Notes: a model not told the origin generated them from the sequence alone. A stretch of 32,000 nucleotides of DNA from Pirellula staleyi DSM 6068 (GCA_000025185.1 CP001848.1:3510001-3542000); one strand, 5' to 3'. Positions 1 through 9,186 are shown, counted from the first letter of the stretch. Numbers and translations are program-made.

Positions 1-1131
1 GCGAATCTGCGCCATACCACGACGCACACGTGCGAGGCTGCTGTTAGGGTCGCTCGGATACTTTTTCAGAAACTCATCGAACACCGCGATCGCCGTGGAG
101 TACGATCCGCTCCGATAATCCTCTTCCCCTTTTTGAAACAGCTCTGATGCCGAGCCACGCGTAAGCGAGTAGACCAGTAGGCCTGCAGCCAGCAGCAGCA
201 CGCCGAGAGCGCCGCCACCAATGAGCAGCAGCGGAGAATCCCACTGGTTCTTCTTTTTCGGTGGAACAACAACACCGGCTGCTGCAGCGGGTTGACCAAG
301 CGGACCAGCGAGAGGACCTGCCAAAGGGCCACCCATGAGTGGATCGCTCCCCAGTGGAGCAGGTCCTGCAATGGGATCGACCGCAAACAGATCGTCGATC
401 GGGGCCGGACCGCTGGGGACGGACAGCGGCGTCAATTCCGTCAGAACTTCCAGATTATCTTCAACCGGAGGCGCGATGGAGGGGGGAGAAATCGGGGCAG
501 GCTTGCTCTCGCGCTTAGGTGGTGTCGAGCCAGGTTTCTCGAGCGTCTTGAAGCCACGCGGCGCAGGTTGAGGCTTAGGTTTGGGTTCGCTTTTCGGAGG
601 CGAAGGAGCAGCTTCTGCTTTGGGCTTCTCGGGCTTCGGCTCCACTGGCTTTGAGGACGATTTTGGATTCTCGTCGAAGTCGAGAGGGGCCATGTCGATC
701 GAGTCGTGAGCCGATGGCGCAGGGGCCACAGGAACCGGCGCTGCTGCAGGAGCCTGGGGAGCCGCTGGAACTGCGGGCTCGAGGTCCACTAGCTCATCGA
801 GCGGATCGACTTTCGCCGCAGCAGGTGCCGCAGGCTCGAGGTCGACAATGTCCTCTTCTTCCTCAATCGGGAGCATCTCTTTCGCAGGAGCTTTGGTCGG
901 TGCAACTGCTTGACGCGTTGTGGTGGGAGCATCGGTCGCTTCACTCGCCGACGCGACTAATTTACGCGCTTGAAAATTCGTCAGGTGCTCGTGATCGACC
1001 AGAACTTTGGCCAGCGCTTCGGGAGTGACAATAAACTTCGATTCGCGCAGCTGACGACGCAGTTCGGAGATCACCTTCTCTTCCAGCAGACCTTGTTGCT
1101 CCGCCAGGTCGAGCATCTTCGAAGCCGACAT
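1..1131 (-). CDS. Membrane-anchored TPR-like protein, C-terminus cut by the window edge. It has an N-terminal cytoplasmic helical domain, a Pro/Lys/Glu-rich linker, one TM helix, then a TPR-like region.
   Basis: Absent from the supplied ORF track because it has no stop codon inside the window. I translated it by hand from the ATG (complement of cat at 1129-1131). There is no in-frame tta/cta/tca on the plus strand down to position 1, giving 377 codons. It begins MSASKMLDLAEQQGLLEEKVISELRRQL. The linker reads KPVEPKPEKPKAEAAPSPPKSEPKPKPQPAP. The TM segment is PPKKKNQWDSPLLLIGGGALGVLLLAAGLLVYSL. The TPR-like part reads FQKGEEDYRSGSYSTAIAVFDEFLKKYPSDPNS. It is on the same strand as the ExbD genes and 93 nt downstream of them. 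Confidence 0.75.
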   Translation of the reverse strand, partial: MSASKMLDLAEQQGLLEEKVISELRRQLRESKFIVTPEALAKVLVDHEHLTNFQARKLVASASEATDAPTTTRQAVAPTKAPAKEMLPIEEEEDIVDLEPAAPAAAKVDPLDELVDLEPAVPAAPQAPAAAPVPVAPAPSAHDSIDMAPLDFDENPKSSSKPVEPKPEKPKAEAAPSPPKSEPKPKPQPAPRGFKTLEKPGSTPPKRESKPAPISPPSIAPPVEDNLEVLTELTPLSVPSGPAPIDDLFAVDPIAGPAPLGSDPLMGGPLAGPLAGPLGQPAAAAGVVVPPKKKNQWDSPLLLIGGGALGVLLLAAGLLVYSLTRGSASELFQKGEEDYRSGSYSTAIAVFDEFLKKYPSDPNSSLARVRRGMAQIR

Positions 1132-1224
1132 GAATCACCACCACTACGAGAGATCAAGGTTCAGTTTCAAGGATTTGTCCCACACTTGCAGCCCACACCC
1201 AAGCGCGTTGCAAGCTTCACACAC

Positions 1225-2232
1225 CTACGGCGCTTCGTCATCCTCCACGCTCAGCAGTTGCACTTCTTCCATCCCGACATCGTTCCCCGCATCGATTGCC
1301 ATCACCACGCGTTCGTGCAGCGCTTCACCACTGGCGATGACCAGCATTTTCGTGGGGACCGAGCTTCCACCATCTTCACGAGCCTGACGCAATTTTACCA
1401 GCAATTCCTGCTCGCTAGGGGCTTCTCGTTCGTCGTCCCAGTGGGCGGCAGAAACATAAAACGTGTTCAGCGAATCGACTCGTACCACCACATAGTCGGG
1501 GTTCTCTTCATAGTCCTCGACCGATTTCGCTTGCGTACTCGGTTGATCGCTTTCAGGCTTCGGAATGCTGAGCGATTTCTGCATCGTGAACGAAGCGGTC
1601 ACCATGAAAAAAATCAGCAGCAGGAAGGTGACGTCGACCATCGGCGTCATGTCCATGTCAGCCTCTTGCGGCTGACGCGTCTTACGTTTCATCGAGGGTC
1701 GCGGGGGCTCGTCTTCTTCGTCCACAGCAGCAGGTGGTCGCGGGGGGGAACCTTTCCAGCGAGATTCGCCACTTATCGCAAACGGAGGGGGAGCTGTTTC
1801 CTCATCAACCACCGCCAGTGTCGCGAGTCGTTCGTCGCTAAATGGTTCCACCGATGCATCGGAGGCGTAATTCGGCTCCATCACCACGGTCATTTGCAAG
1901 TCGGAATCGGGAACTTGCACGATGTCGAGTGCAGCCTCATCGCCGGCAACAGCCGCTGCTGATTCGTCTGCAGCGACATCGATAAACAGGTCGCTTGGGT
2001 TCTCAGTGGCAGCATTGGCGGGGGCGAAATCTGGCGGCGCTACCTCGGTCGAAGGCTCGGTTTCGAGGACGGGGAGTTCCTCTTCCGCTTCCGGAGCTTG
2101 CGGTAGCGGGGGCATGACGGTCGATAACTCTTGGCAACGAGGGCACCGCACCCGTTTCCCCACAAGATGTGGGGAGGTGAGTTGTTCATGACCGCAGGTC
2201 ACGCATCGAAATGGGATGGGAGTCGCTGTCAT
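1225..2232 (-). CDS. ExbD/TolR-family biopolymer transport protein with an N-terminal zinc-ribbon and an acidic linker (335 aa)
   Basis: ATG start. The N-terminus FRCVTCGHEQLTSPHLVGKRVRCPRCQE is a CxxC-x16-CxxC motif. A long Glu/Asp/Pro/Ala-rich linker follows. The ExbD signature then reads EADMDMTPMVDVTFLLLIFFMVTASF, followed by a periplasmic domain. The start overlaps the upstream ExbD stop by 4 nt (ATGA at 2229-2232). Confidence 0.85.
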   Translation of the reverse strand: MTATPIPFRCVTCGHEQLTSPHLVGKRVRCPRCQELSTVMPPLPQAPEAEEELPVLETEPSTEVAPPDFAPANAATENPSDLFIDVAADESAAAVAGDEAALDIVQVPDSDLQMTVVMEPNYASDASVEPFSDERLATLAVVDEETAPPPFAISGESRWKGSPPRPPAAVDEEDEPPRPSMKRKTRQPQEADMDMTPMVDVTFLLLIFFMVTASFTMQKSLSIPKPESDQPSTQAKSVEDYEENPDYVVVRVDSLNTFYVSAAHWDDEREAPSEQELLVKLRQAREDGGSSVPTKMLVIASGEALHERVVMAIDAGNDVGMEEVQLLSVEDDEAP

Positions 2233-2705
2233 TGCGATTCGAGTACTGCCACATAGAGCTGAGGAACTTCGGCCTGGCCAGCAGCCCGCGCGACACGCGT
2301 TACATCGCGGTGCTTGAGCCCTTTCTCGGCCTTAATCAGCACATTCACTTTCAGGGGATCGAGCGCCACTTGTTCTTCGACATACGCCTGAATCGCGGCC
2401 TCTTGCCCCGCGATCGTGCTGCCGTCGATCAAGTTCGCTGGAGTCGTTCCGTCTCCTTTGTAGACGTTGGCGATTTCACCTGGCCCCTTGGTAACTGTCA
2501 GGATCACCGACTCTTTGACAATCGCGACACTTCCGTGCCGGGCGGGGGGAAGATCGATTGCTTCACCCGCCTGCATTTTCGACGACACCAGAAAAAAGAT
2601 CAAAAGCAAGAAGGTGCAGTCGATCATGGGGGTGATGTCCATTTCGGCTTCTTCCACTTTTCGACGCGGACGATTCAGCCGCGTTGATTCACGAAGATTG
2701 GCCAT
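2229..2705 (-). CDS. exbD: Biopolymer transport protein ExbD/TolR (158 aa from the ATG at 2705)
   Basis: Signature EMDITPMIDCTFLLLIFFLVSS, followed by a typical ExbD periplasmic domain (VLIKAEKGLKHRDVTRV). The ORF-track start at 2735 is a TTG. The ATG at 2705 (MANLRESTRLNRPRRK) has a GGGAG about 9 nt upstream and gives a typical ExbD N-terminus. Confidence 0.9.
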   Translation of the reverse strand: MANLRESTRLNRPRRKVEEAEMDITPMIDCTFLLLIFFLVSSKMQAGEAIDLPPARHGSVAIVKESVILTVTKGPGEIANVYKGDGTTPANLIDGSTIAGQEAAIQAYVEEQVALDPLKVNVLIKAEKGLKHRDVTRVARAAGQAEVPQLYVAVLESQ

Positions 2706-2798
2706 CGACAAACACTCCCTAGGGCGGGCAAACAAGTGCGAGAAACCAGCATGCTTCAGGGACTGACCATGAAGCTATCGAGCTTGAAAACGGTGAGA

Positions 2799-3446
2799 TT
2801 ATTTGCGAACGGGGGTGACGGCTGAGGCAAATCGATCGAGAAAATCATTCAGCCCGGCGAAGACCATATCTTCCATCTTGCGAATCCGAACGTTGATGCT
2901 GGCGACACAAATAGTCGCCGGAATGGCGATTGCCAGTCCGATAGCAGTGGTGATGAGCGCGAAGCTGATGTCGGACGCAAGTTGGTCGGGCTTCACGTTC
3001 GCCTCCGACGCCAGTTTGCCGAACGCTGCCATCATGCCGAGCACCGTTCCGAGGAGTCCCAGCATCGGCGCGGTTTTGATCACGTTGTTAATCCAGCTGA
3101 TGCGATGGTCGAGGTCACCGAGCACGTCGCGCTGGAATCGATCGACCACCAGTTCCTGAACTTTCGCCAGCCCTAGGTTGCGGCGCGAAATAGCAAGCAA
3201 GGCGAGCTGTGGCAGGGCTCGTCGATCGCCGTCACAAAGCGCAGCTGCTGATTCAAAGTCTTTCTTCTCGAGGGGGGCCTCGAGTGAAGCCAAGAACTCT
3301 TCCTGCTTCTTTTCCGATTTGAAACGGTTCTGACCGATCCGCATATACACCACCACAATGCAGTACGCACCCCAAAGTGCATCGATGGCCAAGGCCCCGT
3401 AAACGGTGTTACTAATGAAATCCCAGAAGAATGGATCGATATTCAT
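2799..3446 (-). CDS. exbB: MotA/TolQ/ExbB proton-channel family protein (215 aa)
   Basis: ATG start. Family motif APMLGLLGTVLGMMAAFGKLA ... SFALITTAIGLAIAIPATI. The topology looks like three TM helices. It lies directly upstream of two ExbD genes. Confidence 0.9.
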   Translation of the reverse strand: MNIDPFFWDFISNTVYGALAIDALWGAYCIVVVYMRIGQNRFKSEKKQEEFLASLEAPLEKKDFESAAALCDGDRRALPQLALLAISRRNLGLAKVQELVVDRFQRDVLGDLDHRISWINNVIKTAPMLGLLGTVLGMMAAFGKLASEANVKPDQLASDISFALITTAIGLAIAIPATICVASINVRIRKMEDMVFAGLNDFLDRFASAVTPVRK

Positions 3447-3622
3447 GCCAGGTGGTTTGCTTTGTAAAAGGTCCGACGAGTATTTCGGCGGAGCAGGTTA
3501 CGATGTGAGTTCGTCAAGGAGTTGGATCAGTTGTCGAGCGAGCAGAGGGAGCTAACAACAGGCTCGAGTGAGCCCCTTCGTCAGCTAAAAGAGCCAGGCA
3601 TGCGTGGACGAAAACGGTTCGA

Positions 3623-4546
3623 CTAGCCCCCACGCAGTTGCTGTTCGATTACAAAAAATTCGTACTTACCTGCAGAGCCTCGCACGCCAAACACCGTCTT
3701 TAGTACATCCTTGATCCGGCGGCCGTTGAGCTGCTGATTCTCGAGGACGAGCAGTTTTTGATAAGTCGCTTGGCTATAAAACTGAAATACAATTTTGCCA
3801 CTAGGGTCGGCACCGGCCCGGCGGGCCAGCTCGCGATCAGCGTCGCGAAGCTGGCTGCTGCGATGCAAAAACCGAAGTCGTTTTTCATCTTTTGGATCAC
3901 CGACCCGCCGCAGTGGCTTCGCGGTCGAGAGCTTCGAAACGTACTCAACATTCGGACTCCCACCACCGGCGACTCCTAGCTCGACTTCAAAGTAATCGAG
4001 TTGCTGGGCGTAAGTGGCTAGACTCGACGCATTGAGACGCACTTCCCAGCGTTCCCAGGCGGGGATGCCGTCGGAAGTTCCGGGACCACCGGGACCGATT
4101 CCACGGCCATCTCCTGTGCCGCTCCCTTCGCCGCGACCTTGCGACGTGGTGCTGTCGAGCGAATCGAGCTGCATCTCTTCCGACGCAACGATGGTCGAAA
4201 TCGACTCGAGCGACTCCGTGAGAGGAGGCTCGACGTTCTGCTGAAATTCTTCGGGTGCTGGCTCGTCGAGGGGCTGTTCGCCTCCCGTGAAGTTGTCGCC
4301 ACTACCACCACCACCAACATCTTCCACCAGTGTCACTTCGAGCGCTGGTGGGTTGAACATCAGGCGACTCGAAAGCCACACGATAAACAGCAGCAGCGTG
4401 GCGGTTCCGAGCAGCACAAGTACGGCAACGAGCATCCCAGCCACCTGGTCGAAGCTCGAGACCTGCAGCTGCGGTTGCGGCGCGCTGGCGCGGTCCGGTC
4501 GATGACCGGAAGGTGCAGAAGAAGTTGACGCCTCGGGACTACTCAT
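3623..4546 (-). CDS. Hypothetical single-pass membrane protein: N-terminal TM anchor, acidic/Gly-rich linker, and a C-terminal globular domain of about 150 aa
   Basis: The ORF is open to 4621, but that start is a TTG. The ATG at 4546 gives MSSPEASTSS... with the TM helix VAGMLVAVLVLLGTATLLLFIVWL. The linker includes GGGGSGDNFTGGEQPLDEPAPEE and GRGEGSGTGDGRGIGPGGPG. I recognise no family motif. The gene sits in the position usually held by TonB, just upstream of exbB. Confidence 0.65.
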   Translation of the reverse strand: MSSPEASTSSAPSGHRPDRASAPQPQLQVSSFDQVAGMLVAVLVLLGTATLLLFIVWLSSRLMFNPPALEVTLVEDVGGGGSGDNFTGGEQPLDEPAPEEFQQNVEPPLTESLESISTIVASEEMQLDSLDSTTSQGRGEGSGTGDGRGIGPGGPGTSDGIPAWERWEVRLNASSLATYAQQLDYFEVELGVAGGGSPNVEYVSKLSTAKPLRRVGDPKDEKRLRFLHRSSQLRDADRELARRAGADPSGKIVFQFYSQATYQKLLVLENQQLNGRRIKDVLKTVFGVRGSAGKYEFFVIEQQLRGG

Positions 4547-4676
4547 TACAACGTGTTTGAAAGAGTGGGGTTCGAAAAGAGTGCCTGTAACTTTAGTCAA
4601 GGAGCTAGTTGCCGGAGCCAAGCTCGATGGCCAGACGCTGTCATCCGTCTATGCTTGTTGCGAACTACGCTGCTTG

Positions 4677-6455
4677 CTAATCGAGAAGTTCAGCATCGGG
4701 GCGTACCGACAAATACCAGGCTTTCCAAGCCGCGATAGCCGCGTCGATTTCACCTCGCGACGGCGTTTCGCTGAGTCCCACTCCTTGAAACTTTCGGCTG
4801 AGTATCCGCAGTGCTTGATCAGCCTCTTTCACAATACGAATGTCGGGATCGGTGAGTGCGTAGAGCAAAACAGGCACGCTGCTGTAGTCGCGTGCTTGCC
4901 CCAGTGCTTTCACCGCGATGATGCGCGACTGATACGAGCCAGCTCGCACCAGTTCTTTGAGCTTCGTGATCTGACTCGATCGCTTGGTGATATCGCTTTC
5001 GAGTGTAAGCGAAGTCGGCAGATCGCTGATGCTACTTAATATAGGATTCTCGGGATCTTCGATGATTCGCAACAACTCGTCGACGCTGCCCGTGAGTGGG
5101 GTGGTCTCGAGTTTGCCATCTTTCTCGCGCAGATCGCTCGTCGCAGGGGGGAGACCCATACCACCGAGCAGCGTCCCTTCGCCTAGGTCGCCAACCACTT
5201 TCGAAATCGATTTGCTGGCCGAACGAGTGAGAAACAGCACCGACAAACAGGTGGCGACGATCGCATTGTCTTCACCATGCCAGCTGCCATCTTTTTGCTG
5301 GGTCTTACGCAGATGTTCAAAGCCATCGTCGTACCAGCGTGCCGTTTTCGAGCGAGTTCCCTCGGTCAACTCGCGGAAACTTTGATAACGCTCGAGGCCG
5401 TAGAGATAGTAGTGATTCCACCGCGGTGAATTCACCGTGTAGTTCTGCTGAAACCAGCGATTCCCGTCGGCCATGCCGCGACGAACCCACTCGGCTTGAA
5501 TCACTTTCGAAATACCATCGCCACGCTTGCGAGTATTGGGTGGCTCGATCACCTTCAGCTTCGAGGAAACACCGGTCTCTTCTTTGTTGTTTTGTGGGTC
5601 GGTGATCTTCAGCATGTCGGCTGTGATGTAGAGCGAGCCAAGTCCGGCTGCGGTGAGCGAGGGACTTGTTTCCGCTCCATGCTGACGACGCTGCATCGTC
5701 CCATCGTCGGAGACGTGGTAGACAAAACTTCCGCGCACATCTTGTGTGCGAATGAGCCAGCCACAAGCACGTTCGATCACCTCGACTGGAATTTCGAACC
5801 CGCTGTTTTTGGCCATCCACAAACTCAAAATGGCGTACTGCGTTTGTGAGGTATCACCAGCCGGGTTGTGGAGGTAGGTCCAGGCCCCTTCTTTCATCTG
5901 ACGAGAATAGAGTGCCTTGAGAAGTGTTTCGATTTTGTCGCGATACTGCTCGGGATCGAGCTCACACATCAGGATGATCGCCAGCCCAATTGTGTAGATT
6001 TCCGAACTACTGGTGATCTGTGCGTTGCTTAATAAGAGGTCGATGGCAACCAGTCCATCTTTGACTTTGGGATGCGTTTTTTCGCGCCCCGCTTTAAGGA
6101 GCGTTAGCCCCATCAGAATACGACCGCCGTAGCGAGCTTCGGTCTGCTGTTCGAGATAGCCGACCGCGCGGTCGATGACCTCGACAACTTCTTTGCTCTC
6201 GGGAGTGACGGCATGCGCTGCTGGAGGTGTCGCAAAACAGCACGCGAGGATCGCCACGATCGAACACGCCGAGAGCCATCGCCCCCGATAGGACAAACGA
6301 CTTGAGGGGCGGCAGGGGTGAACCGACCAGGAATCTGGTTGGTGGAGGTTGCTGATCACGGCAAATCGTTTCCTTGAAGCACGGGGCAGGAGTCGATACC
6401 GCAGGCCTGCAGCGCTCGGTGTACCAGAAGGGGTAACCGCCACGCTCGAGCCCAA
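4677..6455 (-). CDS. Secreted prenyltransferase/squalene-oxidase-repeat (terpenoid-cyclase-like alpha/alpha toroid) protein with C-terminal HEAT repeats
   Basis: QW-type motifs are present: SRQMKEGAWTY, RTQDVRGSFVY and KTQQKDGSWHG. The C-terminal HEAT/PBS-lyase-like repeat reads IIAVKALGQARDYSSVPVLLYALTDPDIRIVKEADQALRIL. The signal peptide is RWLSACSIVAILACCFATPPAAHA. The start is uncertain: 6455 is a TTG, and an in-frame TTG at 6296 would give MSYRGRWLSAC... right at the signal peptide. Confidence 0.75.
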   Translation of the reverse strand: MGSSVAVTPSGTPSAAGLRYRLLPRASRKRFAVISNLHQPDSWSVHPCRPSSRLSYRGRWLSACSIVAILACCFATPPAAHAVTPESKEVVEVIDRAVGYLEQQTEARYGGRILMGLTLLKAGREKTHPKVKDGLVAIDLLLSNAQITSSSEIYTIGLAIILMCELDPEQYRDKIETLLKALYSRQMKEGAWTYLHNPAGDTSQTQYAILSLWMAKNSGFEIPVEVIERACGWLIRTQDVRGSFVYHVSDDGTMQRRQHGAETSPSLTAAGLGSLYITADMLKITDPQNNKEETGVSSKLKVIEPPNTRKRGDGISKVIQAEWVRRGMADGNRWFQQNYTVNSPRWNHYYLYGLERYQSFRELTEGTRSKTARWYDDGFEHLRKTQQKDGSWHGEDNAIVATCLSVLFLTRSASKSISKVVGDLGEGTLLGGMGLPPATSDLREKDGKLETTPLTGSVDELLRIIEDPENPILSSISDLPTSLTLESDITKRSSQITKLKELVRAGSYQSRIIAVKALGQARDYSSVPVLLYALTDPDIRIVKEADQALRILSRKFQGVGLSETPSRGEIDAAIAAWKAWYLSVRPDAELLD

Positions 6456-6879: not shown

Positions 6880-9186
6880 ATGAGCAAGCGAAACTGGCGT
6901 GCATGGGCAAAACTAACCGGAACCTGGGCCCTAGCTGGGGCCGTGGTGACGGGGCAACTGGTCGGTTCGGCTCTGCCGCACGTGATGGCTCAGGAAGGTG
7001 CTGCGGCGGGCGAAGGTGCTCCAGCCGCTGGACCATCGAGCGGCCCTTCGGCCCTCGGCATTCGTCAACAGCGAGTGGAGCAACTGGTCGAGGAGCTCTC
7101 GCGGAAGTTCACCAGTCTGGCGATTTCGCTCCAAGAGAAAGAGCCCGAACGAGCCGAACGCCTGAAACAAACACTCGAAGCATCGAAGAAAATGCTCCTG
7201 CAAGAGCGGACCGGCGACATCACCAAACTGCTCGACGCTGCCCAACTCGGCAATGCTACGGAAAATCAGCAGCAACTGCTGAGCGACATTCGCAAACTGA
7301 TTTCGCTGCTGCTCGACGATCCCTCCGACAAAGAAAAAGATCGCGAGGAATTCGAGCGACTGAGCGAATGGAAAAAGCAGATCGAATCGATCATCGAGTC
7401 CGAGCGTGGCGAAAAGCGCGAGTCCGATCGCGTTTCGAACAAAGAACAAACGCTTGCTGCCATGGCGGCCCGCATTGCCGCTGTCGAAGCACTTTTAGAA
7501 AAACAAAAAGCGATCCTCGAGGCGACCGAATCGGTCCGCGCGGAAGGAATTCAAAAGCTCGGCCCCATCGCGGGGCAGCAAGCCGATACCCGAGAGCAAG
7601 CCGAAGCCATTTTGAAGGATATTGCCAAAGAAGCTGGCGATCAGGTTCCGGGCGAAGGTTCCGGAGAAGCTCCCAGTGGCTCCAAACCTGGAGAAGGCAA
7701 ACCTGGGGAAGGTAAACCTGGAGAAGGTAAACCTGGAGAAGGTAAACCTGGAGAAGGTAAACCTGGAGAAGGTAAACCTGGAGAAGGTAAACCTGGAGAA
7801 GGTAAACCTGGAGAAGGTAAGCCCGGAGAAGGTAAGCCCGGAGAAGGTAAGCCCGGAGAAGGTAAGCCCGGAGAAGGTAAGCCCGGAGAAGGTAAGCCCG
7901 GAGAAGGTTCGTCCGAAGGGGCGAGTGGCGGAGAGTCGGGAGGTCAGCAGGGGGGCCAGTCGGGCGAATCGGGAAGTCCCAAGCGTCCTAAGGAAGCGGG
8001 TGAACGTCCTCTGGAAGAGGCGGTAAAGAATCAACAAGCAGCTGAGAAAAACCTCGGTGAAGGAAAAGGCAAAGCAGCCACCCAAGACGAACAGTCGGCT
8101 GTCGACAACCTGCAGCGAGCGCTTGCGGAACTCAAGAAGGAAGAGAATCGCATCGCGTCGCTTCCTCCCGAAGCTTTTGAAAAGATGGCGCAAAAACAAG
8201 ACGACATCGCTGGCCAAACGGCCAAGCTCGACGACCAAATGAAAAAGGCTGGCGAGCAAGGAGGAGGGGAGCAAGGTGGCGGTGAGTCGGGCGGGGGAGA
8301 ATCTGGCGGCGGCCAGTCGGGTGGAGGCCAATCGGGCGGTGGTGAGCAAGCTGGCGGCAAGCAGCAACCGGGACAGCAGAAGGTCCAGCAAGCTCAGCAG
8401 CAGATGAAGCAAGCTTCGGGCGATCTCCGCAAGCAACAGCCGAAGGATGCTTCGCGTCAGCAGGGGAAGGCGATTCAAACGCTCGAAGAAGCGCTCCAAG
8501 AAATTGAAGAGCGTTTGGCTCAGCTGCGCGAAGAGACCCAAATCGAAAAGCTGGCGAAGCTGGAAGCTCGTTTCCGCGAGATTTTGGCCCGTCAGGAGGT
8601 TTCATCAGCCGACACGATCGGTTTTGAGACCAAGCGACTTGAACAAGGTGGTGAACTGAAGCGAACTGATCGGTTGGCTTTGGGTAAGGTGGCAGTGGAA
8701 GAGCGTGCTTTGGCGGAATTATCGCAGCAAACGCTCGACATCATTCTCGACGATGGCAGCAGCGTGGTGTTCCCGGATGTGGTTGCCCAGCTGCGCGACG
8801 ATTTGCTCGGGGTAGCGCAGCTGACCGACAGCAAACGAACCGATGCTTACACCCAGTCGCTACAAAAAGAGATCGAGCTGACGCTCGCCGAACTCATCGA
8901 AGCACTCCAAAAAGCGCAAGAGCAAAAGGAGAGTGAAGAGGGAGGGGGCGGCGGAGGAGGAGGTGGCGGCGGTGGTGAAGAACCACTTTTGCCAGGCTCT
9001 GCTGAGCTGAAACTGTTGCGCTCGGCTCAAATGCGTGTGAATCGCCGTACACAGTCGCTCGACACCGCCCGCGATCCCAAGGGGGAACTCCCCGACGATC
9101 TCAAGAGCCAAGTGCAGCAGATTTCGAACCGACAATCCGAAATCGGCGACATGACGATTCGAATTCTCGAGCGAGCATCGCAGTAG
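6880..9186 (+). CDS. Secreted 768-aa coiled-coil protein rich in Glu/Lys/Gln, with (GEGKP)14, (GGGxS)6 and Gly12 tracts; function unknown
   Basis: ATG start. Signal-peptide-like N-terminus WAKLTGTWALAGAVVTGQLVGSALPHVMAQE. Long heptad-like helical stretches are present, for example LLSDIRKLISLLL and IEERLAQLREETQIEKLAKLEARFREIL. Three Gly-rich tracts interrupt them. The C-terminal motif is LLPGSAELKLLRSAQMRVNRRTQSLD. Confidence 0.85.
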   Translation: MSKRNWRAWAKLTGTWALAGAVVTGQLVGSALPHVMAQEGAAAGEGAPAAGPSSGPSALGIRQQRVEQLVEELSRKFTSLAISLQEKEPERAERLKQTLEASKKMLLQERTGDITKLLDAAQLGNATENQQQLLSDIRKLISLLLDDPSDKEKDREEFERLSEWKKQIESIIESERGEKRESDRVSNKEQTLAAMAARIAAVEALLEKQKAILEATESVRAEGIQKLGPIAGQQADTREQAEAILKDIAKEAGDQVPGEGSGEAPSGSKPGEGKPGEGKPGEGKPGEGKPGEGKPGEGKPGEGKPGEGKPGEGKPGEGKPGEGKPGEGKPGEGKPGEGKPGEGSSEGASGGESGGQQGGQSGESGSPKRPKEAGERPLEEAVKNQQAAEKNLGEGKGKAATQDEQSAVDNLQRALAELKKEENRIASLPPEAFEKMAQKQDDIAGQTAKLDDQMKKAGEQGGGEQGGGESGGGESGGGQSGGGQSGGGEQAGGKQQPGQQKVQQAQQQMKQASGDLRKQQPKDASRQQGKAIQTLEEALQEIEERLAQLREETQIEKLAKLEARFREILARQEVSSADTIGFETKRLEQGGELKRTDRLALGKVAVEERALAELSQQTLDIILDDGSSVVFPDVVAQLRDDLLGVAQLTDSKRTDAYTQSLQKEIELTLAELIEALQKAQEQKESEEGGGGGGGGGGGGEEPLLPGSAELKLLRSAQMRVNRRTQSLDTARDPKGELPDDLKSQVQQISNRQSEIGDMTIRILERASQ
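7690..7899 (+). repeat. Perfect in-frame 15-bp tandem repeat, 14 units, encoding (GEGKP)14. It splits into two synonymous sub-blocks.
   Basis: Units of ggagaaggtaaacct fill 7690-7809. That is 8 units; the first has ggc and the second has ggg. Units of ggagaaggtaagccc fill 7810-7899 (6 units). A degenerate unit ggagaaggttcgtcc follows at 7900. Confidence 0.97.
8260..8349 (+). repeat. Degenerate 15-bp (pentapeptide) repeat, 6 units, encoding GGG[E/Q][S/Q]
   Basis: Read in frame: ggaggaggggagcaa, ggtggcggtgagtcg, ggcgggggagaatct, ggcggcggccagtcg, ggtggaggccaatcg, ggcggtggtgagcaa. A separate Gly12 run is encoded at 8941-8976. Confidence 0.85.

Follow-up and report, generated by a model that had tools for sequence, protein, structure and literature searches.

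A deeply conserved planctomycete operon with ExbB/ExbD-type stator genes and no TonB or TolA domain

Gene content and layout of the operon

The window analysed here, i.e. the whole 32,000-nt stretch of the Pirellula staleyi DSM 6068 genome (CP001848.1:3510001-3542000), begins within an operon of eight co-oriented minus-strand genes (g1-g8, with a seven-gene core), of which it covers g1-g5 and a third of g6. Genes g6-g8 extend beyond or lie past the window start, hence the negative coordinates below, which are accompanied by those in the locus L002. An earlier note on this DNA had listed six genes; all six reading frames are present on the minus strand, and two further co-oriented genes, coding for products of 792 and 544 amino acids, bring the total to eight. 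The product of positions 1-1131 had been described there as a membrane-anchored TPR-like protein, of which the transmembrane (TM) helix and the TPR region stand, but the reading frame is cut by the window edge, and the complete protein of 1260 residues carries PQQ/BamB-type propellers as well. The short spacings are real: the two exbD genes share 4 nt (ATGA), by which g5 is translationally coupled to g4, g7 and g8 overlap by 1 nt, and the remaining intergenic gaps measure 60-176 nt. The features of the operon are as follows.

4677..6455, minus strand: g1, predicted exported protein; alpha/alpha-toroid-like region, and HEAT repeats at the C-terminus (HEAT_2, 27.9 bits against a cut-off of 27.7)
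3623..4546, minus strand: g2, 307-aa single-pass protein of TonB-like topology, a new family not modelled in Pfam
4367..4444, minus strand: g2 TM helix, residues 35-60 (pLDDT 91-98)
4298..4345, minus strand: g2 'motor-box-like' stretch ALEVTLVEDVGGGGSG, residues 68-83 (from alignment conservation)
3632..4069, minus strand: g2 C-terminal globular alpha/beta domain, residues 160-305 (pLDDT mostly 83-97)
2799..3446, minus strand: g3, ExbB/TolQ-type stator A subunit, 215 aa (PF01618, 84.4 bits)
2229..2735, minus strand: g4, ExbD/TolR-type stator B subunit (PF02472, 69 bits)
1225..2232, minus strand: g5 (ExbD'), second ExbD/TolR paralogue with zinc ribbon and acidic linker (PF02472, 71.4 bits, residues 189-327)
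2134..2205, minus strand: g5 zinc ribbon, C10, C13, C30 and C33 (CxxC-x16-CxxC motif)
1..1131, minus strand: g6, part inside the window, residues 1-377 of 1260; the full reading frame continues to window coordinate -2651 (L002 9349-13131, minus)
946..1131, minus strand: g6 N-terminal cytoplasmic helical domain, residues 1-62, conserved in f1 and f2 orthologues
163..231, minus strand: g6 TM helix with juxtamembrane motif N-x-W-D-S-P-L-L-L-I-G-G-G (aligned in 26 orthologues)
-5090 to -2712 (L002 6910-9288), minus strand: g7, 792 aa, predicted exported protein with TPR-like and SBP_bac_5-like regions (SBP_bac_5, 74.7 bits)
-6724 to -5090 (L002 5276-6910), minus strand: g8, 544 aa, predicted exported protein of FlgT/TolB-N-like fold (model pLDDT 89)

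The Pfam scores bear out the identification of one ExbB and two ExbD proteins made in the earlier note. The MotA_ExbB channel domain together with the TM2 threonine, which mark the A subunit of 5:2 motors, are found in g3, and the ExbD/TolR fold with a protonatable TM aspartate (TPM(I/V)D), which marks the B subunit, in both g4 and g5. By strict pattern, 19 of 23 orthologues have the TM2 motif PMLGLLGTV of g3, including the threonine, and 20 of 23 the aspartate in DITPMIDCTF of g4; the aspartate in DMTPMVDVTF of g5 is kept in 22 of 23. The g3 protein is a short 3-TM form without N-terminal extension. The best NCBIfam matches of the three proteins are tolQ for g3 (70.8 bits, cut-off 221) and tolR for g4 and g5 (39.9 and 45.5 bits, cut-off 127.3), all far under the cut-offs, and the TolQ/TolR equivalogs are thus not reached. 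As predicted from these features, one ExbB/TolQ-like gene and two ExbD/TolR-like genes that differ from each other specify a 5:2-type stator. The cytoplasmic zinc ribbon of g5 is followed by an acidic linker of ~150 aa. The Pfam zinc-ribbon matches are all sub-threshold and the closest PDB sequences are the S27e and RpoP ribbons (E = 0.05-0.1); the zinc-ribbon call of the earlier note is carried by the CxxC-x16-CxxC motif, kept at position 6-26 of g5 in 21 of 23 orthologues.

Envelope proteins encoded beside the stator

Directly upstream of exbB, in the slot of tonB, lies g2, which is single-copy in its own genome with no paralogue there, is tandemly duplicated in one clade, and belongs to a family of 281 close homologues (1405 representatives at 50% clustering). 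A conserved cytoplasmic motif, L-x-V-S-x-Y-D-Q-V-S, precedes its TM helix; in the TM region W57 is invariant and S30, Y32, Q34, V35, L39, L43, G47, T50, F54 and L58 are at least 90% conserved. The helix contains no conserved His, and hence no SHLS motif, in 40 and 39 aligned sequences. The stretch ALEVTLVEDVGGGGSG starts ~10 residues past the helix and is followed by an acidic/Pro linker; its D76-V77-G78-G79-G80-G81-G83 is invariant in alignment A1 of 40 close homologues, and the g2 proteins of family f3 also keep a hydrophobic-alternating stretch and then GG at this position. By analogy, we infer a resemblance to the motor box that has been described for TonB and TolA (PMC12204202). The globular head has no fold relative: the best Foldseek match in the PDB reached E = 0.08 (probability 0.12), TonB, TolA and vWA chains were absent among the 50 best Foldseek matches of the model, and a sequence profile search of the PDB returned only E >= 0.78. 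No Pfam or NCBIfam family matches g2, none of 46 g2-family members carries a TonB_C, TolA or VWA Pfam domain, and hhalign comparison with planctomycete TonB_C domains gave a probability of 0.09%.

The g6 protein is laid out as a cytoplasmic head, a Pro-rich linker, a TM helix, a TPR region and two PQQ/BamB-type beta-propeller regions, with PQQ_2 at 64.6 bits and sub-threshold matches to TPR, YfiO and YbgF; its TPR region also gives a weak NCBIfam match to tol_pal_ybgF (E = 3.5e-4). The helical head has no Pfam match and only two weak matches elsewhere in the genome, and in f3 it is replaced by an FHA domain (PF00498, 30.8 bits against a cut-off of 20.7). Most orthologues across the three families retain the 'SPL' ahead of the TM helix, and g6 itself is conserved in every locus reaching that far.

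The remaining products, g1, g7 and g8, carry SPase-I type signal peptides, also seen in g1 orthologues; because of these peptides they are predicted to be exported and probably periplasmic. The g1 product had been called a prenyltransferase-repeat/HEAT protein, of which the HEAT part passes its cut-off narrowly and the prenyltransferase part does not hold, since the SQHop_cyclase_N/C, TED and Prenyltrans matches are all sub-threshold in Pfam. Its true start is uncertain, with candidate starts among codons 1-67 of the reading frame. The nearest solved relative of g7 is AccA (E = 5e-7), and ABC transporter genes were not found near g7. The g8 protein is single-copy in its genome and belongs to no Pfam family. 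Foldseek matched its model to the FlgT/LPHT ring (best match, E = 1e-8) and to TolB (E = 1e-6), both at probability 1.0; the likeness is one of fold, as global TM-scores to TolB and FlgT are low (0.16-0.27), and many unrelated periplasmic lipoproteins, to which a TolB-N-like fold is common, stand in the same match list. FlgT is a periplasmic ring protein of the Vibrio flagellar H-ring that helps to hold a stator-associated structure. In both FlgT and g8 a beta-sandwich comes after a TolB-N-like alpha/beta domain; g8 differs in its additional helical bundle at the C-terminus and its Pro/Ala tail, shares only ~10% sequence identity with FlgT, and is encoded in an operon without flagellar genes.

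Conservation and genomic context

Of 32 informative loci, drawn from three planctomycete families (f1-f3), ~26 show the gene order g1-g2-exbB-exbD-ZnR-exbD-g6-g7-g8 at 20-45% identity, in agreement with the expectation that the flanking genes would be conserved beside exbB-exbD-exbD in relatives. Recurrence across three families at such identity puts the arrangement far beyond chance, and the operon is real and deeply conserved in planctomycetes (Pirellulales-type). Profiles of g2 and g8 hit an identical set of 23 of the 400 sampled genomes of the phylum, with both present in 2/2 genomes of f1, 1/1 of f2 and 19/20 of f3. In 23 loci g2 is preceded by g1, an accessory gene that is missing from several f3 loci (L032-34, L038-40). 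Linkage of the stator to g2 and g6 is frequent and not obligatory, because five loci (L012-14, L015, L035) have no stator between g2 and g6; in both genomes inspected among these, a ZnR-ExbD cassette does occur elsewhere, though its subtype differs somewhat.

Neither TonB, TolA, TolB nor Pal/OmpA domains were detected in the eight products by Pfam and NCBIfam, nor TonB or TolA by profile-profile comparison and fold search of g2, which upholds at the level of sequence the earlier statement that the cluster is without a TonB C-terminal domain or a Pal/TolB-like gene; at the level of fold, g8 does match TolB. Likewise as stated there, no TonB-dependent receptor gene occurs in the window or the operon: such receptors are almost absent from the genome, the sole good PF00593 match lying 870 kb away, and neither it nor the genome's one good TonB_C protein (C1:3243231) is encoded beside a stator. 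The genome holds no TolA, no second TonB/TolA-type domain and no TolB_N (PF04052); three OmpA-like genes are present, all away from the operon, and the flagellar MotAB genes are found outside it at C1:5.676 Mb. A canonical Tol-Pal system is absent from the genome. No outer-membrane component, beta-barrel candidate or adhesin was found in the operon.

A proposed envelope machine and its alternatives

The conserved association of a motor with five unnamed envelope proteins, in place of TonB or TolA, favours a dedicated envelope machine driven by the proton motive force (probability about 0.6), and one that is probably undescribed so far. Its closest analogues are the Tol-Pal system, the Agl-Glt core of Myxococcus and the recently proposed vWA transducers, to none of which the cluster belongs. 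In PVC bacteria, vWA 'transducers' adjoin TPR-tolQ-tolR-tolR genes (PMC12204202, 2025). The P. staleyi operon shares with them a TolQ gene and two heterologous TolR genes beside a TonB-shaped protein with a non-TonB head and a TPR partner; it departs from them in the g2 head, which is not of the vWA fold, in the absence from g2 of the SHLS/His motif reported there (PMC12204202), and in a different partner set (g6, g7, g8, g1).

The operon could also be read as an ordinary Ton motor, its ExbB-ExbD(-ExbD) energising the lone TonB and the receptor in trans, with the flanking genes as mere neighbours. Such a motor would suit a genome in which the only good TonB_C protein and the only good receptor both lie away from stators and in which g3 is the sole short, canonical-length ExbB among 11 MotA/ExbB-family loci. 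The likeness to Ton extends to the stator, of the ExbB/ExbD family with its conserved TM aspartate and threonine, and to g2, which occupies the place of tonB and passes from a TM helix through a short strand-like stretch and an acidic/Pro linker into a globular head; exbB is followed by two exbD genes in some Ton loci too, e.g., in Xanthomonas. Unlike Ton loci, however, the operon has neither TonB_C domain, SHLS/His motif nor receptor, one of its ExbD proteins bears a zinc ribbon, and four large extra envelope proteins are added. Cluster-bearing genomes are often without any TonB_C: in the class sample, none was found at E <= 1e-8 in 8 of 8 such f2/f3 genomes checked, and therefore the motor cannot depend on a distant TonB. 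With the gene order around the stator kept across three families at the identities given above, and with tolQ and tolR, not exbB and exbD, as best NCBIfam matches (all far under cut-offs), we regard this reading as very improbable. A true but extremely diverged Tol-Pal homologue, in which g2 would be TolA, g6 and g8 together TolB and the TPR parts CpoB, draws on those same tolQ and tolR matches, on the tol_pal_ybgF match and the beta-propellers of g6, on the fold match of g8 to TolB chains and on the lack of TolB_N and TolA elsewhere in the genome; as in Tol-Pal, one operon brings together a motor and a bitopic arm with TPR and beta-propeller modules and a fold of the TolB-N/FlgT type. Against it, the stator scores lie 3-5 times under the equivalog cut-offs, the operon has no Pal/OmpA-like gene and by sequence neither TolA domain III nor TolB_N, and the g2 head is unrelated to TolA or TonB. 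For TolB the findings point both ways: PF04052 is absent genome-wide, yet the g8 model agrees with TolB and FlgT at the level of a fold, one common to many unrelated periplasmic lipoproteins, and g6 has propellers, which are PQQ/BamB-type, not PD40, and fused to a membrane anchor. Two TolR paralogues, extra solute-binding-like and toroid/HEAT proteins and a different gene order further separate the operon from Tol-Pal, and common descent with that system appears unlikely.

In Myxococcus, GltG is built as FHA-TM-Pro-rich (PMC3169522) and GltJ as ZnR-linker-GYF-TM (PMC11135422), and the ancestral Agl-Glt core complex (AglR/Q/S, GltG, GltJ, GltD/E/C) is likewise of unknown function (PMC3169522, PMC11135422). 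An Agl-Glt/Nfs-type machine, in which a TolQR-like motor moves envelope cargo along or across the envelope to serve motility on surfaces, adhesion or the depositing of surface material, would explain one TolQ-like and two distinct TolR-like subunits, as in AglR/AglQ/AglS, a cytoplasmic FHA on a bitopic partner (g6 of f3), as in GltG, a zinc ribbon with flexible linker, as in GltJ, and several TPR proteins, all of them likenesses of domain layout. The operon differs in that the partner heads are not TonB_C-like as in GltG and GltJ, the zinc ribbon is carried by the TolR-like subunit and not by the transducer (except in L024, where it is on g2), Pfam detected no GYF domain in the window products, and outer-membrane Glt barrels or an adhesin are missing. 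We know of no gliding in these three planctomycete families, which adds to the case against this reading, and it seems quite unlikely. Planctomycetes of the genera Gemmata and Planctopirus take up dextran and GFP into the periplasm in a CCCP-sensitive manner (PMC5394234), and the motor might accordingly drive the entry of large substrates into the enlarged periplasm of planctomycetes, g7 being the ligand binder; the SBP_bac_5 domain of g7 without an ABC partner and the near absence of TonB-dependent receptors would fit. The Gemmata and Planctopirus families, however, fall outside f1-f3, where the g2 and g8 profiles matched strongly, the operon has no outer-membrane channel, and the signal peptides of g1, g7 and g8 point to the periplasm, so that we give such an uptake machine little chance.

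For the dedicated envelope machine, the likeliest role by analogy would be the holding, moving or remodelling of outer-membrane or wall components in a Tol-Pal-like or Agl-Glt-like manner; receptor-mediated nutrient import appears less likely. The stator would act on bitopic proteins encoded beside it rather than on TonB or TolA, and the products of g2 and g6 are the best candidate partners, as the earlier note had proposed together with its inference of a lineage-specific energy-transducing system for the planctomycetal envelope. Judging from their strictly paired genes, g4 and g5 may pair as a heterodimeric axle. For the force-transmitting arm, g2 would be the likeliest candidate, with a conserved short cytoplasmic tail, a TM helix with a conserved face, the strand-like stretch, an acidic/Pro/Gly linker and a 145-residue head. 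TonB and TolA dock on their motors via a His/SHLS motif, and its absence from g2 counts against g2 as the arm. The g6 protein could serve as an inner-membrane-anchored periplasmic platform of TPR and two propellers, to which g7 (TPR and solute-binding-like), g8 (FlgT/TolB-N-like) and g1 (toroid and HEAT) would be added as periplasmic partners, and its helical or FHA head might, along with the zinc ribbon of ExbD', feed regulation into the motor. Only tentatively, and with considerable doubt, g2 may be placed in a third class of periplasmic force transducers, after TonB/TolA and the proposed vWA class, with cytoplasmic control exerted via a zinc-ribbon switch on the stator and the FHA/helical head on the scaffold. 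In the locus L024, the zinc ribbon is found on the N-terminus of g2, and g5 is there without one; because g2 of this locus bears the ribbon that ExbD' otherwise bears, the arrangement suggests that the N-termini of g2 and ExbD' belong to one assembly.

An eight-gene operon and its conservation in three families

The earlier note had described an ExbB/ExbD operon without TonB, whose partner would probably be one of its uncharacterised anchored proteins. The six open reading frames on which it rested were recovered at the same positions in the window, all on the minus strand:

4677-6455, minus strand: g1, exported, toroid-like/HEAT protein
3623-4546, minus strand: g2, single-pass protein of 307 aa
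2799-3446, minus strand: g3, ExbB
2229-2735, minus strand: g4, ExbD
1225-2232, minus strand: g5, zinc-ribbon ExbD (ExbD')
1-1131, minus strand: g6, cut off by the window edge, full length 1260 aa

The reported 4-nt overlap is the ATGA shared by g4 and g5, and the other intergenic gaps of the operon measure 60-176 nt. All six genes of the proposed order are present, but the operon does not end with them: it continues past the window, where g6 proves to be longer and is followed by two further genes, g7 and g8. In the 12 kb that precede the window (L002; window coordinate equals L002 coordinate minus 12000), g7 starts 60 nt after g6, g8 and g7 overlap by 1 nt, and the block is terminated by a convergent Ser/Thr kinase gene. 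A search of the operon for promoters and terminators gave counts inside the shuffled expectation and is thus uninformative. The window covers G000:C1:3510001-3542000, and the genome is complete (6.2 Mb).

Comparison of the eight proteins with 35 loci by tblastn and blastp, 32 of them informative, revealed that the order g1-g2-exbB-exbD-ZnR-exbD-g6-g7-g8 is kept in about 26 of the 32, including loci of a second and a third planctomycete family (f2 and f3) in which identities drop to 20-45%; conservation of the genes flanking exbB-exbD-exbD, on which the earlier proposal depended, is thereby established. Among 400 sampled genomes of the phylum, g2 and g8 occur in the same 23 (2/2 in the window's own family, f1, 1/1 in f2 and 19/20 in f3), with marginal matches only elsewhere. 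Since g1 is absent in several f3 loci, the core consists of seven genes. The cluster is accordingly a conserved module of seven to eight genes that includes a stator of its own and lacks TonB and TolA. In five loci (L012-14, L015 and L035) the stator is missing between g2 and g6, and the two complete genomes among these carry an exbB-exbD-ZnR-exbD cassette elsewhere, of a slightly different sequence subtype.

Two neighbouring genes were rejected as members of the system: L037 and, loosely, L034 are the only loci where the Ser/Thr kinase gene adjoins g8, and conservation of the divergent gene upstream of g1 is limited to L007 and L021. The latter (window 6880-9186, plus strand) encodes an exported coiled-coil protein of 768 aa with a long perfect run of GEGKP repeats and several low-complexity tracts rich in Gly, Glu and Gln.

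The stator and its zinc ribbon

Pfam searches matched g3 to MotA_ExbB (84.4 bits) and g4 and g5 to ExbD (69 and 71.4 bits), and the stator belongs to the MotA/ExbB-ExbD family; its top NCBIfam matches are tolQ and tolR, at scores 3-5 times below the equivalog cut-offs. Near residue 7 the second ExbD carries a zinc ribbon, CxxC-x16-CxxC, which 21 of 23 orthologues retain. In one locus, L024, ExbD' has lost its ribbon and g2 carries one at its N-terminus instead: this g2 orthologue (L024:9533-10876) is extended N-terminally by 140 aa, which include a CxxC-x27-CxxC ribbon and a segment rich in Lys and Pro. Such a placement fits the N-termini of ExbD' and g2 belonging to one assembly, although the spacing of the two ribbons is not the same. 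For such motors, this conserved ribbon, placed on a TolR-like subunit, would represent a new mode of cytoplasmic regulation.

The stator cassette comes in two sequence subtypes (L010, L019, L041 and L042), one with PMLGLLGTV and DMTPMVDVTF and the other with PLLGLFGTV and DMTAMVDIVFF, the second being the one seen inverted, ribbonless or unlinked from the cluster. Short acidic-hydrophobic motifs occur in the cytoplasmic linkers of g5 (window 1650-2130; DLFIDV, LPVLETEP) and g6 (window 166-1131; DDLFAVDP, EVLTELTP and, twice, (I/L)VDLEP), and a (D/E)(D/E)L-x-(F/L) motif is repeated after the head domain in g6 orthologues. These motifs are candidate docking peptides that might bind the zinc ribbon or a common partner.

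The single-pass protein g2 and the question of TonB

The g2 protein is composed of a conserved cytoplasmic motif (L-x-V-S-x-Y-D-Q-V-S), a TM helix with an invariant Trp and with conserved residues spaced i, i+4, and, about 10 residues past the helix, a conserved, hydrophobic-alternating stretch with glycines after it, ALEVTLVEDVGGGG; then come an acidic/Pro segment, a Gly-rich segment and the head. The TM helix contains no His, so the SHLS motif is lacking. A "motor box" strand is reported for nearly all TonB and TolA proteins (PMC12204202), and the post-TM stretch of g2 appears to resemble it in position and character. The C-terminal domain (residues 160-305) was modelled with confidence by AlphaFold2 from 40 homologues (pLDDT mostly 83-97). 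None of the 281 close homologues, each of about 300 aa, is annotated; the family counts 1405 representatives at 50% clustering, and its relatives in named genomes are mostly from records labelled Pirellulaceae or Anatilimnocola.

The absence of TonB, TolA, TolB and Pal, noted earlier from the sequence alone, was borne out by profile searches, in which none of the eight products matched these families. That g2, which occupies the tonB position, might itself be a diverged TonB is rejected on four lines of comparison: relevant Pfam matches were found in 0 of 46 family members, the g2 family profile matched no PDB sequence, the best Foldseek match of the head in the PDB had E = 0.08 and probability 0.12, and profile-profile comparison with nine planctomycete TonB_C domains gave a probability of 0.09%. 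The GHKL-ATPase-like folds that occupy the top Foldseek rows (E >= 0.08, probability <= 0.2) are noise. Alternatively, the stator could work in trans with a canonical, distant TonB, and the own genome does encode one TonB_C protein, along with one good TonB-dependent receptor and three OmpA-like genes, all far from the window, and no TolB_N. However, in a 40-genome sample of the class, TonB_C at E <= 1e-8 is absent from 7/7 f3 genomes and from the f2 genome G330, all of which bear the cluster, and this rival is therefore largely removed.

The earlier reading, a lineage-specific energy-transducing system with an anchored partner, is supported; its coupling and role we infer. The motor's work would be taken up by g2, probably jointly with g6; regulation would come from the zinc ribbon and from the FHA or helical head of g6, and the task of the machine would be envelope maintenance or remodelling.

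Several variants of g2 were encountered. A tandem pair of copies occurs in one clade: in L016-L020 and L023 a second, diverged g2 (292-321 aa, 34-44% identity) lies between g2 and exbB, with the same architecture and without the invariant EDVGGGG motif. A distant homologue of 649 aa in the representative sequence library (P0223) has a PilM-like actin-fold domain (about 370 aa) fused to a g2-like TM-linker-head; this GspL-like layout hints that g2-type proteins can couple to cytoplasmic ATPase-fold partners. A g1/g2 pair also turned up in a MAG that bears the label Nitrospiraceae (L026, contig CAVSJC010000002.1), where faulty binning is a likelier cause than transfer.

Further envelope proteins, known systems and other stator loci

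From its N-terminus g6 comprises a cytoplasmic head, a Pro-rich linker, a single TM helix, a TPR-like stretch and PQQ/BamB-type propellers (PQQ_2, 64.6 bits). The TM helix and the juxtamembrane motif WDSPLLLIGGG are conserved; the head is a helical domain of about 60 residues in f1 and f2 and an FHA domain in f3 (PF00498, 30.8 bits). An HMM of the helical head gave only two weak matches in the own genome, and a domain common to this head and the N-terminus of the kinase was rejected, as the HMM misses the kinase. Behind its signal peptide the g7 protein (792 aa) has a TPR-like part and an SBP_bac_5 domain (74.7 bits), with no ABC transporter genes nearby. For g1, described earlier as a prenyltransferase-repeat/HEAT protein, HEAT_2 lies just over the cut-off, and the alpha/alpha-toroid matches all stay below threshold; a lipoprotein was rejected, as the orthologues have SPase-I sites and lack a conserved Cys.

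No Pfam family was matched by g8 (544 aa, with a signal peptide). Its model (pLDDT 89, 49 homologues) found as top PDB matches FlgT and the LPHT ring of the Vibrio flagellar basal body (E = 1e-8), followed by TolB (E = 1e-6) and by CT253, DUF330, HpaA, PelC, GNA1162, LpoB-C and CsgG, small periplasmic lipoproteins of TolB-N-like fold; global TM-scores are low because the domain arrangement differs. The model is read as a FlgT/TolB-N-like domain with beta-sandwiches and a helical bundle behind it, and not as a TolB orthologue. A distant g8-like match in genome G126 lies on a short contig on which its context is not visible.

To our knowledge, only a handful of outputs are known for ion-driven 5:2 motors, namely flagella, Ton, Tol, gliding/type 9 secretion, Agl-Glt and Zorya. 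The defining features of Ton (TonB_C, SHLS motif, receptor) are missing from the cluster, and it does not qualify as Tol-Pal either, with a stator under the equivalog thresholds and no TolA, Pal or TolB_N. It resembles the Agl-Glt core complex, which likewise combines one TolQ-like with two TolR-like subunits. In that complex the bitopic protein GltG has an FHA domain on its cytoplasmic side (PMC3169522), and GltJ bears an N-terminal zinc ribbon on a flexible linker that serves as a switch (PMC11135422). Unlike in Agl-Glt, the heads in the cluster are not TonB-like and the outer-membrane Glt components are missing. The closest published idea is that of the vWA-headed "force transducers" adjoining TPR-tolQ-tolR-tolR in PVC bacteria (PMC12204202); the g2 head is not vWA. 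Our literature search found no publication describing the cluster, and a recent review of the phylum leaves Ton, Tol and Exb proteins unmentioned. Macromolecule uptake in Gemmata and Planctopirus is CCCP-sensitive (PMC5394234).

The operon would represent a well-defined new output module for 5:2 motors and contains two annotation-free protein families, g2 (1405 clusters at 50% identity) and g8. It bears on how the envelope of a Tol-Pal-less genome holds together, and on the role of ExbB/ExbD paralogues in a genome whose 11 MotA/ExbB-family loci contrast with a single TonB and a single receptor. The sole TonB_C protein (L003, G000:C1:3242364-3243482; 372 aa) is an orphan with no adjoining exbB/exbD. 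Six more ExbB/ExbD(-ExbD) clusters on the same chromosome (G000:C1, near 1.198, 2.559, 3.206, 3.609, 3.736 and 5.476 Mb), none adjoining TonB, have long ExbB proteins (277-333 aa) with signal-like N-termini; the proteins encoded on their flanks are very large (587-1678 aa), and some of them are probably rich in TPRs. Two atypical MotA-like genes (G000:C1:5252147-5253475 and 1379748-1380638; 442 and 296 aa) are each followed by two single-pass proteins in place of ExbD or MotB and might belong to further types of 5:2 motor.
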